IMG/VR virus record: IMGVR_UViG_3300030372_002956
Location: 1 to 42,894 of that record
DNA from: a virus
Taxonomy: Duplodnaviria > Caudoviricetes
DNA: 42,894 nt
Reading direction: 5' to 3' (one strand)
Made by a program: the position numbers and the translations under genes. The notes beneath the pieces were generated by a model, which was not told where the DNA came from, did not search any database, and saw only the letters and a program-made list of their open reading frames with translations. Positions 480-21,167 of this stretch are shown one piece after another; position 1 is the stretch's first letter; each line of letters begins with the position of its first letter.

Positions 480-899
480 ATGAACAAATTATTTTTAACA
501 ATGATGTTAGCTTTAATTACTACTTTTGCATCAGCGCAATTTGTAGCGTTAACAACTGTTACTGAAGTTGAAGAAGAATATAACTTTACCGATAAAATCG
601 GTATGGGCTATATGTTAAATGATTGTATTACCGTTGGTGTTACAATGGATGGTGAAGATAAATATGAAATTTTCGGCCGTTACGTAATGCATAGCTCTGG
701 GGTTTGGGCTACAGGTATATATGATTATGAAAAAGATTCTGACACTGAAATGACAGATAAGTTAAGTTTAGGAATTGGATATTCTTATAATGTATGGAAA
801 AATCTATATATTGACCCTTACTATACAATGCCTTTAAAAGAGGATAGTAATGGTAAAAGAGAAGGTTCTATAAACCTAGGTTTATCTTACAAATTTTAA
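480..899 (+). CDS. Small outer-membrane beta-barrel protein (probably 8-stranded)
   Basis: Sec signal peptide MNKLFLTMMLALITTFASA|Q, alternating amphipathic strands (IGMGYML, LSLGIGYSY, LYIDPYYT) and a C-terminal beta-signal NLGLSYKF. Confidence 0.8.
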   Translation: MNKLFLTMMLALITTFASAQFVALTTVTEVEEEYNFTDKIGMGYMLNDCITVGVTMDGEDKYEIFGRYVMHSSGVWATGIYDYEKDSDTEMTDKLSLGIGYSYNVWKNLYIDPYYTMPLKEDSNGKREGSINLGLSYKF

Positions 900-924: not shown

Positions 925-1149
925 ATGGAAAAAGTAATAAATTATTTAACAGGATTCTTTGGTGGATTGATGGCAGTAATGATGTCAATTTTACCAGTGA
1001 CAATATTATGGTACGTATTAACAGGTGGAGATGTTTGGGGAATGGATGTGATTACAAACTTAACAGCTCTAATCAACATGTTTGGAACTGGCGGATTTAC
1101 CGGGTTAGTAGTATTAGTAATGTTAGCGGGATTTTTTGTTAAGAAGTAA
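925..1149 (+). CDS. Small Gly-rich inner-membrane protein (about 2 TM helices)
   Basis: 74 aa, two long hydrophobic stretches, basic KK end, A-rich leader before ATG. Confidence 0.8.
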   Translation: MEKVINYLTGFFGGLMAVMMSILPVTILWYVLTGGDVWGMDVITNLTALINMFGTGGFTGLVVLVMLAGFFVKK

Positions 1150-1567: not shown

Positions 1568-2023
1568 TTAAATTACCATGTATTTAGTTTTACCATTTTC
1601 ACGATAAGCTTTTAAACATCTATTTCTATTATCATCTTCAGATATGTAACTAACATGAACCCAATCAGGATTATCATCATCTCCAAACTCCCATATCATT
1701 TGATCAAAGTTTAAATTTTCTTTTATCCAATGATACATTTCAGCGTTAGTAGCTTTTCCAAAAGTGTCATCAAGGTCTATGGCTTGCCCATGACAATGTT
1801 GAGATCTACCACTACCACCTATAGCTTTGTTAAGTTCTGGACATCTAAAAAAACTATTTATTTTTATAGGTCCACCAACCCACTCTCTAAGTGGTTCAAA
1901 TACTTTTTCTGCAATTAATTCCATATTATCTAATTGCTCATCATTAGGAGTATTATTAATGCCTCTTCTTATTGCAGTGTTGCTATACACACCTTCTTTA
2001 TATGAAATATGTTTACTTATCAT
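1568..2023 (-). CDS. Endolysin, peptidase M15A (Zn D-Ala-D-Ala carboxypeptidase-like)
   Basis: INSFFRCPELNKAIGGSGRSQHCHGQAID...WVHVSY carries the M15 R / SxH-x6-D / H Zn-site motifs. Confidence 0.92.
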   Translation of the reverse strand: MISKHISYKEGVYSNTAIRRGINNTPNDEQLDNMELIAEKVFEPLREWVGGPIKINSFFRCPELNKAIGGSGRSQHCHGQAIDLDDTFGKATNAEMYHWIKENLNFDQMIWEFGDDDNPDWVHVSYISEDDNRNRCLKAYRENGKTKYMVI

Positions 2024-4426: not shown

Positions 4427-7303
4427 TTATTTTTTTATTATTCTTTTATTTATTGTTTTATTTTTATATGTTATTTGTAACATATACATCCCAGAACGCA
4501 ATTTCGTTACATCTAAGACGTTTATATTTTGTTTGGATATAATCATATCCCCGATATAATTAAATACGTTTATATCAACGGTTTGATTTATATTAATTTT
4601 ATCACTAGTTGGGTTTGGATATAAAACCAAAGCTTCTTCTAATGTTATTCTAGCTGGTATTGGACCGCTCCAAGAGCTATCACAATAATTATAAGTTAAT
4701 TGACATATACTGTCCCATTCTGTTGTACAACAATATTCATCAATATCTATAACCCAAGCATAGCAAGGATCATTTAACCAATAAGGTGTTCCTGACCCAG
4801 TAATACAACCAGCATCATATAAGCAAGAACTACTATCATTAACATTAGCAAGTCCCGAATAGTTGAACGCTGATGGGTCCATACATCCTGTAACCACTTC
4901 AATACACGAACCGTTGTCAGTATTAGCTGTTGAATCATAGTTAAGAGCAGTACTATCCATACAGCCATAAATATAAGGAATGCAACTAAAATCTTCTGTA
5001 TTAGCTTGTGAGTTATAGTTAAGCATAGAAGGATCAGTGCAGCCGTAAATATAAGGTATACAATTTCCATTATCTGTGTTTGCTAGTGGGTCGTAATTAA
5101 ACATTACACTATCTGTACATCCGTATACAAAAGGAATACAGGACCCGTTATCTGTATTCGCACTAGGGTTATAATTCCACATTGAAGCATCCATACAACC
5201 AAATATATAAGGAACACAAGAACTATCATCTACATTTGCGCTAGGCATGTAATTCCACATTGTAGAATCCGTACACCCATACATCACGCCTTCACAAGTA
5301 CCATCGTCTGTATTAGCTAAACTATCATAATTAAAAGCTATTGGTGTAGTACAACCATATATTACTGGTATACAAGTATCAGGTGTATTAGCGTTTACAT
5401 TATAATTAAAAGCTAAAGAATTCATACAACCTAATATAATAGGTATACAGCCACCGTTGTCTACATTTGCTAATGGATCATAATTAAAAGCTGTAGAATC
5501 CGTACAGCCAAATACAGCTAAATCAACACAGGAACCATTGTCAATATCAGCAACAAAACCTTGTGTATAATATTGTAAGTAACCAGGGTTTGTGCAACCA
5601 GGACTATAATAACATGTATCTGCTGTATTTGCAGTATCACTGTAATTATAAGCTAAAGAATCTAAACAACCATAAACAACGTCTATACATTCATTACCAC
5701 AATATGGTAAAGCAGAATAAATATCTTCTGGATTTCTAAAGTTTCTTAATTTATTTTCATTTGGACCAGGCCAAGGATTATTACCTTCATAAAGTATTTC
5801 ACCGTAAGCATTTTCTAGTTTAAATGAATTTTGTATTGTTTGTATATCTAACTGTTGTGCGTTTTGTTGTGGGGTTGGTACTTCAAAATAATATATATAA
5901 ACTTCTTCGTGGGGATCTAATGATAAATTAAATGTATCAGAATAAACTCCATTTGAATCTATTTTAAATTGCCATAAATAACCACCTTGTCTTACACCTA
6001 ACCAACAATTACCCCAAGAATCTCCACCAGCATCATATAATATTAAATCATATATACAAGGTGAAGTTAATTCCATTCTATGAGCAGCTGGATCATAGTT
6101 AAAAGCATTTGAATCAGTACATCCATATAAAGCTATAACATTACAACTACCATCATCGATAGTAGCTAACTCATTATATTCTATATAATCATCATCAGTA
6201 CACCCATATACAGGTGTATTACTATCACAAGTGTCAGCAACATAAGGATTTGAAGAAGCGCTATAACCAAAGTTAGGTGGATTTAAATTAAAGATAGTAT
6301 CAAAGCAATCTAAGTTAGTTACTAAACAACTACCAACTACAGAACCACCACCAATACCATCTCCATAAGTGTCATTAATAGTAAACATTATTGTATCACC
6401 AATTGGTACACATACTTCAGTAAATACAGTTTGTCCAACTTGAGTATAATCATATGTACCAGCTGAAACAGTTCTTATTATAGTTCCATTAGCTTTAATC
6501 TCCCAAGAAGTTTCACTTGGCCAATTATCTAATAATATTGCAACCTCTATTAATGATTGACCTGGATTACAATTAACTTCCATTACGCAACTACCATCAT
6601 CAACATTTGCCCATGGATTATAGTTTTCTGCTAGTGGGTTCATGCAGCCATTAATATAAATACAACCTATGTTAATCGTTGCTAAAGAATCATAATTAGG
6701 AGATATAGAGTCCATACAACCAGGTACTATAGCGTATGGATCACTTATCATTATATCATCAATACATATATCACTAGTAAAACTAGTACCTGTATTACCT
6801 ACAAAAGCTATTTTAAAATCGTGTTGTAAGTTTAAGCTATCTAATGAATAATAACCAAGTTTCCAATCCATGCCTTGATCTCCATTGTAAGCGTCTATAA
6901 ATATATAATTACCCATTACATCTATAGCGGCTATTTCTAATTCACCCATTGCTGGTCCAAACATATGGTACCAGAAAGATAACACTTTACCATACGTGGC
7001 TGAAACATCAAATGTTGGTGTATATGTTATAAGTTGTTTACTAGGATAATTAGGATGTGATGATTCTACATAAAAATAAACACCGTTACCCGTGGTATGA
7101 TCTCCTTGAGGACCAGTGTTAAACGAAGGTGTACCACCTGTTCTTAATAACCAATCCCCATCATCGTTTAAATCCTGTTCTAACGGAATGTTATTATCAA
7201 AATTATGTATCCAAGGAAAATTATTTATTTGTGAGCAACATTTTTTAGGAGCAGCACAAGAAACTATTATTAATAAAACTAATATATATAATATTTTTTT
7301 CAT
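4427..7303 (-). CDS. Secreted MAM-domain / GCxD-repeat protein with T9SS type-A C-terminal sorting domain
   Basis: ATG at 7303 (TAATG overlap) gives signal peptide MKKILYILVLLIIVSC. MAM motifs TPSFNTGPQGDHTTGNG, LSFWYHMFG, DICIDDI; about 15 GCxD repeats; C-terminus LYPNPT...GMYMLQI...KRIIKK. Confidence 0.85.
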   Translation of the reverse strand: MKKILYILVLLIIVSCAAPKKCCSQINNFPWIHNFDNNIPLEQDLNDDGDWLLRTGGTPSFNTGPQGDHTTGNGVYFYVESSHPNYPSKQLITYTPTFDVSATYGKVLSFWYHMFGPAMGELEIAAIDVMGNYIFIDAYNGDQGMDWKLGYYSLDSLNLQHDFKIAFVGNTGTSFTSDICIDDIMISDPYAIVPGCMDSISPNYDSLATINIGCIYINGCMNPLAENYNPWANVDDGSCVMEVNCNPGQSLIEVAILLDNWPSETSWEIKANGTIIRTVSAGTYDYTQVGQTVFTEVCVPIGDTIMFTINDTYGDGIGGGSVVGSCLVTNLDCFDTIFNLNPPNFGYSASSNPYVADTCDSNTPVYGCTDDDYIEYNELATIDDGSCNVIALYGCTDSNAFNYDPAAHRMELTSPCIYDLILYDAGGDSWGNCWLGVRQGGYLWQFKIDSNGVYSDTFNLSLDPHEEVYIYYFEVPTPQQNAQQLDIQTIQNSFKLENAYGEILYEGNNPWPGPNENKLRNFRNPEDIYSALPYCGNECIDVVYGCLDSLAYNYSDTANTADTCYYSPGCTNPGYLQYYTQGFVADIDNGSCVDLAVFGCTDSTAFNYDPLANVDNGGCIPIILGCMNSLAFNYNVNANTPDTCIPVIYGCTTPIAFNYDSLANTDDGTCEGVMYGCTDSTMWNYMPSANVDDSSCVPYIFGCMDASMWNYNPSANTDNGSCIPFVYGCTDSVMFNYDPLANTDNGNCIPYIYGCTDPSMLNYNSQANTEDFSCIPYIYGCMDSTALNYDSTANTDNGSCIEVVTGCMDPSAFNYSGLANVNDSSSCLYDAGCITGSGTPYWLNDPCYAWVIDIDEYCCTTEWDSICQLTYNYCDSSWSGPIPARITLEEALVLYPNPTSDKININQTVDINVFNYIGDMIISKQNINVLDVTKLRSGMYMLQITYKNKTINKRIIKK
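4820..5680 (-). repeat. Tandem ~26-aa GC(T/M)D-x2-A-x-NY-x3-AN-x-DDGSC protein repeats
   Basis: Eleven consecutive units read in the translation, plus four more further N-terminal. Confidence 0.9.
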
Positions 7304-7416
7304 TACGCTTTGCAACAATTATCTCCTGCTTCACATACATCAGGTTTTATACACCATTCAAAACAAACTAATCCAAAAGATATAGCTTTTATCCATTTAC
7401 ATATTTTTTCTTTCAT
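7303..7416 (-). CDS. 37-aa Cys-rich peptide (not in ORF track)
   Basis: MKEKICKWIKAISFGLVCFEWCIKPDVCEAGDNCCKA*; fills the gap exactly; its TAA overlaps the next ATG. Confidence 0.7.
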   Translation of the reverse strand: MKEKICKWIKAISFGLVCFEWCIKPDVCEAGDNCCKA

Positions 7417-8514: not shown

Positions 8515-8850
8515 TTAAAAATCACTCATTAATTGATTATCTATTTCCTCTTGTACCTCTTTCCTTGTTGCTAACATTTTGAAACTAAGATCAGCTTGAA
8601 ATCTAGCAACTTCTTCATCATCTTTAAATATTATAATAGTAGGTACTACAGCTATTTTATATTCTTTTTGGTCTTCTGTATTTTTAGCTACATCTATATA
8701 ACCTATAGTTTTGCAATCTGCTAAATCCATAACCCAAGGAATATCATTAGCACTATTCCAACCAGCATTAAATTGTATTACTTTAATTTGCCCAAAAACT
8801 GAGTTAGACAATAGTATAAAGAAAATAACAAGTATATTTAATTTTTTCAT
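8515..8850 (-). CDS. Exported thioredoxin-fold protein lacking CxxC
   Basis: Signal peptide ...SVFG|Q; VIQFNAGWNSAN occupies the FxAxWCxxC position; cis-Pro loop VVPTIIIFKDDEEVARF. Confidence 0.8.
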   Translation of the reverse strand: MKKLNILVIFFILLSNSVFGQIKVIQFNAGWNSANDIPWVMDLADCKTIGYIDVAKNTEDQKEYKIAVVPTIIIFKDDEEVARFQADLSFKMLATRKEVQEEIDNQLMSDF

Positions 8851-8854
8851 TTAA

Positions 8855-9133
8855 TTATTGATAAAGTTTGTCTTCTATTTTTTCTATAGACTCTTTAATT
8901 TCTTCTACATCTTTTTTAGTGTCCATAATAGTTTGACGTATCATTTGATCTTTCATGTCAAATTCCATTCTTGTAATCTCTGGATCTGGGGCAGCTGGTA
9001 ATTCTTTAGCCTCAGCTATATCTGCTTGAAGCATAAACCACATACTAATAATAGTTGCCATTGCAAACCCTATACCTATTAACGTTTTAATACTTACATT
9101 AAAACCTGTATCTTCATTTAATTCTTTTGCCAT
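8855..9133 (-). CDS. Membrane-anchored coiled-coil protein
   Basis: One TM (TLIGIGFAMATIISMWFML), Pro linker LPAAPDPE, heptad-like C-terminus. Confidence 0.75.
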   Translation of the reverse strand: MAKELNEDTGFNVSIKTLIGIGFAMATIISMWFMLQADIAEAKELPAAPDPEITRMEFDMKDQMIRQTIMDTKKDVEEIKESIEKIEDKLYQ

Positions 9134-9135
9134 TT

Positions 9136-10218
9136 TTAAAATATAACGTAATTTAATCCTAATTTAAAATCGTACCATTCTCTGTTCCAATACTTATTGT
9201 ATTTTCCTTCTAAAAAATATCCTAAACTTTTATTTTGTTTTATACCATATATAAAACCAAAAGAGTAATCATACCATTGGTCATCTGTAATATAGTTATG
9301 ATAACTAAATTCACTACCGTCGTTATAATGGTAAGGTAATAAATTACCCCAAGCATGCAACCATGTTTTCTTAGAATATTTATAATAATCAAAACCCATA
9401 ATCATAGAGTGTTGTATTACTTTAGATAATTCATTTCTTTTTCTTTCGGTGTAATCAGATAACACTTTTGGTATAACTACAGCTTCCCAAACCTCTGAGC
9501 TAGTAGCAACTACATCACCAGTCGGGTCATAGTACTCGTTGCTATACACATCAACCGTATAACCTTCTTGTAAAGCTAAGTAAGTATAATGAATATTTCC
9601 ATTTGATAATAACCATTCAGAAAGTGGATCATAACCATAAGGCTCTGCCAATCTATGAGCAGCCCCTATATTAAAAGATAAATTTTTACCTTTTCTATAC
9701 CTATACCTTTCTGATGCTTCAAAATATTCTACATCAGCAAATCCATCTTGTAAATATTCTACTTTTAAAGCAAAAAAGTTTACACATAAACCACTAGGAC
9801 AACCGTCATCAGAACTAAATCTAATAAAGTGGTGTTGATCCATATAATCTACACCTTCTTGTCTTTTATAATCTACTTCAAAAAGATATTCAACTCCTTT
9901 AACTTTACCTACAGTAGCCGCATCACTGTAATTTGATTCAGTTCCATCATAGAATGTTTGTGCTTTATTCTCGTATCCAAATCTTGCTATCTTACGTAAA
10001 CCAATGGTAAAATTATAATCATAAGGAGTTGAAATAGTTTGTGTAGATAAACCATTACCTACAGAAAATACTTCAACATCAGACAATGATGTCCCACCAT
10101 TTACAGCAGCATAAAATGTAGAAAACTTTAATAGTTTCTTAACATCTTCTATTCCATATGTTTGCGCTGTTACTATATTTGACATTAGTAATAGCAAGAT
10201 TATCAGTTTCTTCACCAT
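9136..10218 (-). CDS. Outer-membrane beta-barrel protein, 360 aa
   Basis: Signal peptide ...IVTA|Q; Tyr/Trp/Phe-rich alternating strands; C-terminus DFKLGLNYVIF. Confidence 0.7.
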   Translation of the reverse strand: MVKKLIILLLLMSNIVTAQTYGIEDVKKLLKFSTFYAAVNGGTSLSDVEVFSVGNGLSTQTISTPYDYNFTIGLRKIARFGYENKAQTFYDGTESNYSDAATVGKVKGVEYLFEVDYKRQEGVDYMDQHHFIRFSSDDGCPSGLCVNFFALKVEYLQDGFADVEYFEASERYRYRKGKNLSFNIGAAHRLAEPYGYDPLSEWLLSNGNIHYTYLALQEGYTVDVYSNEYYDPTGDVVATSSEVWEAVVIPKVLSDYTERKRNELSKVIQHSMIMGFDYYKYSKKTWLHAWGNLLPYHYNDGSEFSYHNYITDDQWYDYSFGFIYGIKQNKSLGYFLEGKYNKYWNREWYDFKLGLNYVIF

Positions 10219-10220
10219 TA

Positions 10221-10249
10221 TTTATTTTGTTATATAATCACTTGTTTTT
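10221..10249 (-). promoter_or_regulatory. Candidate phage-specific promoter, copy 2
   Basis: AAAAACAAGTGATTATATAACAAAATAA, near-identical to the intergenic element at 21143-21167. Confidence 0.55.
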
Positions 10250-21142: not shown

Positions 21143-21167
21143 TATTTTGTTTATAATTACAGTTTTT
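21143..21167 (-). promoter_or_regulatory. Candidate phage-specific promoter, copy 1
   Basis: AAAAACTGTAATTATAAACAAAATAA in one of the few sizeable intergenic gaps, ahead of the ejection genes. Confidence 0.55.

Follow-up and report, generated by a model that had tools for sequence, protein, structure and literature searches.

In two-component spanins, the i-spanin is a type II inner-membrane protein with a periplasmic coiled coil, and the o-spanin is an outer-membrane lipoprotein whose gene adjoins, or is nested in, that of the i-spanin; unimolecular spanins combine an N-terminal lipobox and a C-terminal membrane helix in a single protein. According to the sections of Kongari et al. (2018, PMC6139136) drawn on here, about 13% of surveyed Gram-negative phage genomes have no identifiable spanin, and an OMP acting as o-spanin is named there as an unexamined possibility. 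Phages are also known to encode cargo of the T9SS, as the passages on the ‘Cryophage’ type A cargo describe (Bellas et al. 2020, PMC7468147).

Here we describe a set of three genes, encoding a predicted outer-membrane barrel (BAR), an inner-membrane coiled-coil protein (CC) and an exported thioredoxin fold (TRX), which together form a real, conserved, phage-borne module. With a probability of roughly 45%, we propose that CC-TRX-BAR is a lipoprotein-free, spanin-like chain that helps to break the host outer membrane at lysis.

Genome setting and layout of the locus

The stretch analyzed here (the window) comprises all 42,894 nt of IMG/VR record IMGVR_UViG_3300030372_002956, a linear virus record of 79% completeness from an uncultured marine phage, and has a GC content of 32%. 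Pfam and PHROG searches placed genes for the terminase, portal and virion proteins, along with a crassvirus muzzle domain, on the minus strand, identifying the window as the late arm of a crAss-related podophage. The host is probably a member of the Bacteroidota, judging from the T9SS tail of a 963-aa gene product and from signal peptides that end before Gln, which is the rule used for this assignment. Along the minus strand, a 3056-aa gene is followed by BAR-CC-TRX, small variable genes, the T9SS-tailed gene and an M15 endolysin; the features are as follows.

9136..10218, minus strand: BAR, predicted 12-stranded outer-membrane beta-barrel, 360 aa (AF2 and structural matches)
8855..9133, minus strand: CC, single-pass membrane protein with coiled-coil tail, 92 aa (sequence reading, alignment)
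8515..8850, minus strand: TRX, exported thioredoxin fold with WNSAN for WCGPC, 111 aa (Pfam, alignment, AF2)
10230..10243, minus strand: non-coding motif upstream of BAR, putative late promoter of the phage (conservation in close relatives)
4427..7318, minus strand: optional neighbour with MAM domain, Cys-rich repeats and T9SS type A sorting tail, probably translated from the ATG at 7303 (PF00629, PF18962, TIGR04183)
1568..2023, minus strand: M15 peptidase endolysin, 6.5 kb downstream of the trio and on the same strand (PF08291, phrog_894 endolysin)
925..1149, plus strand: 74-aa membrane protein with a homologue in the lysis cassette of record G451 (35% identity, E 8e-9)
480..899, plus strand: second, small outer-membrane barrel (PF13505, weak)

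An earlier, sequence-only reading of the window had described three tightly packed genes, and the minus-strand ORFs of 360, 92 and 111 aa are indeed separated by gaps of only 2 and 4 nt. The next downstream gene is also just 2 nt away, so that tight packing alone sets no downstream boundary for the trio. Signal peptides and topology of the three products were assigned by eye. The plus-strand barrel (480-899) and membrane protein (925-1149) converge on the endolysin, and homologues occur in lysis cassettes of L236, L248 and G451. No 3TM holin was found in the window, the record being 79% complete; in relatives, the 3TM holin lies near the terminase, which is where the window record ends.

The same reading had given the cassette its own promoter-like element, a proposal that survives in part. 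In 61 of 86 ORFs from close relatives, a motif core occurs no more than 90 nt from the BAR start (background, 2.4%); the core pattern was chosen after the motif had been seen. The core is rare in the other sets (8/79, 0/6, 2/78 and 0/22). Within the window, the 14-mer is repeated at chance level (4 vs. 2.5 expected), and there is no surplus of sigma-70 sites (57 vs. 65.7). Two further intergenic look-alikes lie on the minus strand of the window, at 21152 and 1517, and in L066 the motif remains behind the giant gene where BAR has moved away. The motif is lineage-specific and no feature of the module; it is a plausible candidate for a late promoter of the window phage's lineage.

Distribution and linkage of the three genes

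BAR homologues numbered 3520 among 5269 candidates (clustered at 90%), with 305 representatives at 50%, and one barrel pattern set is estimated to occur in about 1700 viral stretches. Four sets of loci were compared: 85 close relatives (clade 1), 80 loci at about 35% identity (clade 2), 6 from large phages (clade 3) and a broad set of 79 (clade 4). Counting only loci with 3 kb on both sides, CC and TRX lie within 3 kb of BAR in 47/49, 44/58, 4/4 and 44/44 cases in clades 1-4, respectively, in agreement with the co-conservation for which a synteny check had been suggested. The exceptions comprise nine loci with CC and TRX farther off and seven without one or both in the stretch, one of these being an ORF-filter artefact.

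CC directly precedes TRX in 197 of the 215 loci with all three genes, in the orders BAR-CC-TRX (165), CC-TRX-BAR (46) and other (4). The trio occurs across podo-, sipho- and large-phage architectures with its gene order shuffled, beside neighbours such as crAss-like giant genes, tail genes of large phages, and portal, neck and tape-measure genes of siphoviruses. The large-phage clade also shows an MscS-like gene before BAR (L167:6573-6989) and a 186-aa barrel-looking gene after the module (L167:10366-10926).

Five queries found no match among 50,697 records of deposited phages. All five GTDB matches (L081-L085) lie in phage-like contigs inside MAGs, and in a sample of 401 Bacteroidota genomes the BAR and CC profiles matched a single one, a MAG contig already known as phage-like, and none of the other 400. 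A cellular origin was rejected, since neither GTDB nor the 401 Bacteroidota genomes yielded a copy outside phage-like contigs. The labels of GTDB MAGs carrying the module (Sphingobacteriales, Parvibaculum, Maricaulis, Rickettsiales) are likely to reflect binning contamination and not the host. Titles and abstract starts in the literature held no description of the gene set, although names for the genes may exist in the annotation tables that supplement marine virome papers.

The predicted barrel

The 360-aa protein had been claimed as an outer-membrane barrel, and its AF2 model (pLDDT 79, pTM 0.74) has 12 long strands, as read by eye from the DSSP string. BAR thus combines a signal peptide (Sec-type, read by eye), an even number of long antiparallel strands and a terminal aromatic residue, Phe. 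Its top structural matches are all outer-membrane barrels, among them the 12-stranded secretion barrel FapF, with the 12-stranded sugar porin NanC as closest Foldseek match (E 1.9e-5, TM 0.34); structural scores are tied within one Z unit among unrelated barrels and single out no porin family. BAR has no family in Pfam, PHROG or NCBIfam and no HMM match to NanC/KdgM porins, FapF or PorV/PorP T9SS barrels, and a PDB sequence search with the barrel profile returned no match up to E 5; BFVD holds a single nameless homologue (TM 0.71).

Counting strands from a periplasmic N-terminus, mature residues 59-89 of the model would form a long periplasmic loop, which is conserved, and residues 174-248 a 75-aa helical insertion on the outer side. 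Many of the invariant or near-invariant columns of a 103-row alignment fall within residues 55-76, in the putative periplasmic loop, which is the least confident part of the lone AF2 model, and Arg residues are conserved along the barrel. The outer insertion of distant BARs (P0127, P0150, P0151, P0153, P0208, P0228) carries DxDxDG-like, possibly calcium-binding motifs. A Cys-x-K-x-Cys-Cys-x-Gln run at the signal-peptide end, present in the window cargo (4427-7318), in 50 BAR proteins of close relatives and in 1 TRX, appears to pass from one gene of the module to another.

The coiled-coil protein and its MshEN-like fusion

As expected of the inner-membrane-anchored coiled coil that had been read into it, the 92-aa CC has one hydrophobic stretch, located after a conserved Lys16, and then a heptad-like tail. 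Its sequence suggests an N-in/C-out topology, which is supported by the fusion of an MshEN-like domain to the CC N-terminus in one clade. The predicted periplasmic part, only about 57 residues long, contains an E57-x3-K61-D62-x3-R66 motif in which E57 and K61 are invariant, and D62 and R66 near-invariant. This motif is present in 247/261 CCs with TRX and BAR, 41/45 with TRX only and 0/14 without TRX (50/52, 6/9 and 0/6 when dereplicated), with 34 edge or mixed cases set aside, among which 2 of 11 without a near TRX keep it. For the dereplicated TRX-only vs. TRX-free comparison, Fisher P is 0.028, kinship ignored. The members used to build the CC profile bear the motif, and lone CCs have on the whole diverged further; motif loss in the latter may be general drift. 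Six of 74 CC members weakly match a holin PHROG (best E 7e-5), at coiled-coil noise level. Lysis cassettes also contain paralogues of CC, a family marked by a KWPRGE motif (phrog_20984; L209:8134-8448, L323:1195-1500, L436:6068-6382).

In clade 3 (L167:8099-8776, L169, L171 and L172, on large phage contigs of 66-169 kb), CC begins with a tandem MshEN-like domain followed by a Pro-rich linker. This fusion family comprises 1707 matches among 1970 candidates, the best 120 of which all keep the CC motif. Pfam made no call for the domain; its PDB matches are MshE/PilF/PilB pilus ATPases in 11 of 11 cases (best whole-chain E 1.9e-7; 5HTL E 0.009), and several of these entries carry c-di-GMP binding domain in their title; the tandem 24-residue motifs of MshEN are present. 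Two lead positions of these motifs hold Lys/Gln in 103 of the 120 and Lys/Leu in the matched PilF stretch, Arg being the typical MshEN residue where the clade-3 CC mostly has Lys and Gln. By these similarities, the clade-3 CC appears to join a c-di-GMP-receptor-like domain to a membrane anchor in a single phage protein.

A thioredoxin fold without catalytic cysteines

The description of the 111-aa protein as a redox-dead thioredoxin is well founded: WNSAN aligns to WCGPC, Pfam matches Thioredoxin (E 1.7e-4), and the AF2 model (pLDDT 92) matches thioredoxins at a TM of about 0.7. The conserved Pro loop of thioredoxins is kept, its Pro-Thr being invariant, the one Cys left is non-catalytic, and the C-terminal residue is Phe. 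WNxxN occupies the active-site position in 75/75 close relatives; as a universal TRX motif it was rejected, being lost in clade 4. Among 219 TRX-profile matches, CxxC is found at this position only in an ordinary cytoplasmic thioredoxin in L251. The signal peptides of TRX and BAR end before Gln; those of barrel-free TRX do so too, and for this reason the idea that it might itself be a lipoprotein was rejected.

TRX ends in Phe or Tyr in 219/222 copies with BAR vs. 0/59 barrel-free copies, and in 18/18 barrel-side copies vs. 0/18 second copies. Barrel-free TRX forms a single clade (SH-aLRT 99, quick tree), so that the correlation between terminal Phe and BAR represents one evolutionary event.

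Lysis-gene context and nested presence

The trio has a lysin within 1.5 kb in 1/57 loci of clade 1 (the window phage's own), 49/51 of clade 2 (with DUF5675 and phrog_3000/33083-like proteins included as presumptive wall enzymes), 0/4 of clade 3 and 32/53 of clade 4, and a 3TM holin is near the trio at 1, 28, 0 and 22 loci, respectively. As these loci are related and the counts therefore not independent, the link to lysis rests more on the finding that the lysins beside the trio include M15 peptidases and amidases, non-homologous enzymes that both fill the slot.

A scan with the N-terminal half of CC returned mostly CC-TRX-endolysin-holin cassettes without BAR, with a lysin within 1.5 kb in 35/45; where CC had neither TRX nor BAR, the figure was 14/14, and 18 loci carried CC-TRX-BAR plus a second CC-TRX. 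BAR was found in 0 of 32 barrel-free records searched whole (16 at least 90% complete, 3 with terminal repeats), using the same profile that detected BAR in records picked by their holin. Several of the 80 holin-picked loci have CC alone inside the cassette; when the records of 50 of these loci were searched whole, BAR was found in 10, CC in 20 (one marginal) and TRX in 11, and the near-complete records had CC in 6/6, BAR in 4/6 and TRX in 4/6. CC stands alone in four records that are 95-100% complete (G448, G451, G486, G487), and CC and TRX occur without barrel or lipoprotein in G459 (terminal repeats) and G473. The trio is thus a unit in that its genes travel together, but not an obligate one, as CC+TRX and lone CC exist in near-complete barrel-free genomes. 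Because scans that do not select on BAR reveal these smaller sets, the core of the module can be taken as CC, in most cases accompanied by TRX, to which BAR adds a third layer.

Between endolysin and holin, 32/58 barrel-free loci vs. 16/245 barrel loci contain a hydrophobic, beta-looking ORF of 45-53 aa (L365:6134-6289, L404:4718-4879 and others), possibly a membrane-disrupting peptide.

Searches for spanins and lipoproteins

That the window holds no canonical spanin pair, as first noted from its sequence, agrees with the absence of a spanin-like lipoprotein in any frame of this 79% complete record; the lipoprotein detector recovered 11 of 12 controls. On its predicted topology, CC is a type II inner-membrane protein with a periplasmic coiled coil, like an i-spanin; no lipobox ORF in the window could provide an o-spanin, and none of BAR, CC and TRX has the unimolecular layout. 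Spanin families in Pfam and PHROGs gave no convincing sequence match. Neither three near-complete trio records (for credible spanin-type lipoproteins) nor G459, G473, G486 and G448 (for any lipoprotein) yielded a candidate. Genes for u-spanin-like lipoproteins, with a lipobox and a C-terminal membrane stretch, adjoin complete trios at 2 of the 332 loci scanned (L207:8104-8520, L180:8596-9009). The 80 holin-picked loci include no spanin-bearing, trio-free relatives, and strict mutual exclusion with spanins was not demonstrated there.

A small lipoprotein family with a short conserved hairpin and a Tyr/Asn-rich tail often abuts CC or TRX (L413:5629-5973, L371:4314-4694 and 23 more loci), at 15/58 barrel-free vs. 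10/245 barrel loci. It is a candidate o-spanin stand-in; the notion that a lipoprotein always replaces the barrel was not upheld, since only those 15 of 58 barrel-free loci have one.

The secreted Cys-rich neighbour

The sorting tail of the 963-aa neighbour exceeds the cut-offs of both T9SS families (TIGR04183, 34.9 bits vs. 23; PF18962, 43.2 vs. 27). Across three clades the Cys-rich gene takes the form of a MAM domain with repeats, an LDLa-like module with Asp-Thr repeats, or a lipoprotein, the last of these encoded after TRX in at least 5 clade-3 loci. Of the trio loci, 34/57 in clade 1, 51/51 in clade 2 and just 1/53 in the broad set (clade 4) have a secreted Cys-rich gene within 1.5 kb, which makes the neighbour optional; a four-gene T9SS cargo display module was rejected because clade 4 has the trio without cargo. 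A YPNP-type tail is found in 8/45 clade-1 cargo proteins, and hhalign gives cargo tails vs. type A a probability under 15%. The clade-2 cargo tail, similar by eye to a T9SS signal, was rejected as one, with support from neither HMMs nor hhalign.

Discussion

Three roles had been offered for the cassette from sequence alone: spanin-like disruption of the outer membrane, uptake and superinfection exclusion. The first is the best supported, by the lysis-cassette position of the genes in unrelated phages; the other two gained no positive support. Of the outcomes named beforehand as refuting a trans-envelope complex, two did not materialize: the genes are co-conserved, and the 360-aa protein has a predicted barrel fold. 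In the spanin-like chain, CC would sit in the inner membrane and bind TRX, a periplasmic adaptor, via the helix bearing E-x3-K-D-x3-R, and TRX would dock via its C-terminal Phe on the conserved periplasmic loop of BAR, the outer-membrane anchor. Once the holin has triggered and the wall has been digested, this chain would draw the two membranes together or open the outer one. In relatives without a barrel, contact with the outer membrane would be made differently, perhaps through the small lipoprotein in some and a host protein or lipid in others. The correlations of the CC motif and the TRX terminal Phe fit the order CC-TRX-BAR, without proving contact.

We liken the CC set to a two-component spanin because a type II coiled coil and an exported partner lie among lysis genes with no spanin lipoprotein; for want of that lipoprotein, the trio itself is no member of the class. 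Several observations weaken the spanin-like reading. A lysin is near the trio in only one clade-1 locus, the endolysin of the window being 6.5 kb away, and in none of clade 3. Lone CC and anchorless CC+TRX exist, and a spanin needs an outer-membrane anchor. Two trios (L180, L207) adjoin u-spanin-like genes, the periplasmic reach of CC is short, and both the 75-aa outer domain of BAR and the MshEN-like domain of CC exceed what an anchor needs.

The main alternative, which we think rather unlikely at about one chance in four, is that the set instead regulates lysis timing. In that account, modelled on T4 lysis inhibition, CC would act at the holin as antiholin or cofactor, TRX would modulate it from the periplasm, and BAR, where present, would relay an outside cue, e.g. 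a second phage adsorbing. CC alone adjoins a 3TM holin in near-complete genomes, the nesting of CC within CC+TRX within CC+TRX+BAR fits added regulatory layers, and in an abundant clade CC is fused to an MshEN-like domain that resembles c-di-GMP receptors; the six holin PHROG matches point the same way but stay at coiled-coil noise level, and the MshEN-like motifs mostly lack the typical Arg. A regulator would, moreover, leave G459, G473, G486, G448 and the window with no candidate for outer-membrane disruption. LambdaSo offers a precedent in a 65-aa membrane factor that acts at the holin level, according to the relevant part of its description (bioRxiv 2024.01.23.576932).

It is improbable that the trio is a miniature export or display device, in which BAR would pass a Cys-rich phage product or hold it on the infected cell, TRX would be its chaperone and CC an inner-membrane tether. 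The secreted Cys-rich genes of clades 1 and 2, the lipoprotein form in clade 3 and the match of BAR to FapF would suit such a device, as would the T9SS tail of the window's neighbour, given the phage T9SS cargo described in the passages cited above (PMC7468147). Cargo is, however, nearly absent beside clade-4 trios, a T9SS tail uses a host machine, most cargo tails are unlike type A, and FapF is tied with unrelated barrels. Least probable of all is superinfection exclusion or a solute channel, with BAR and its outer domain blocking or decoying an incoming phage or importing a nutrient: the NanC match, the Arg residues along the barrel and the large outer insertion with its DxDxDG-like motifs in distant members agree with it, but the structural matches single out no porin family, the trio belongs to the late structural arm, and the barrel-free CC+TRX pair in lysis cassettes is left unexplained. 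Both of these accounts fit the barrel only.

A broader and more doubtful proposal is a third architecture for the last step of lysis, in which an inner-membrane coiled coil is combined with a thioredoxin repurposed as adaptor and, in place of a lipoprotein, an integral barrel. It would have been layered as CC, TRX and BAR, with one clade linking it to host c-di-GMP via the MshEN-like domain. Signals from inside and from outside the envelope would then govern lysis in thousands of ocean phages. The trio is a concrete, cheaply testable candidate for spanin-free opening of the outer membrane in very abundant marine phages; the barrel-free pair and lone CC provide natural deletion controls, and the motif correlations name residues to mutate.

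Comparison with known systems

BAR has the barrel fold in common with NanC/KdgM, FapF, Tsx and autotransporter barrels (VIA Z 9-10.7, rmsd 4.6-6.3), but at 4-11% identity and with matches tied with the 16-stranded TamA/BamA; unlike these barrels, it has a predicted long, conserved periplasmic loop and a helical outer insertion, and is phage-borne. The CC set resembles T4 T/RI in pairing a small single-pass membrane protein tied to the holin with a periplasmic partner; to our knowledge, neither a barrel nor a thioredoxin fold is part of the T4 T/RI or LambdaSo Lcc6 systems. LambdaSo Lcc6, a holin-level accessory protein (bioRxiv 2024.01.23.576932), belongs to the same comparison, without evident homology of the CC set to either system. 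The ‘Cryophage’ cargo and the window's 963-aa neighbour both carry a type A sorting tail; for the trio such cargo is optional, and the ‘Cryophage’ passages concerned (PMC7468147) name no barrel, CC or TRX.

The closest likeness is to two-component spanins such as lambda Rz/Rz1 and T4 PseT.3/PseT.2, which, in the sections of the spanin survey used here (PMC6139136), share with the CC set a type II coiled-coil protein and an adjacent exported partner, located beside holin and endolysin in many relatives. The trio differs from them in having no lipoprotein: its exported partner is a soluble thioredoxin fold, and its outer-membrane part is an optional integral barrel.
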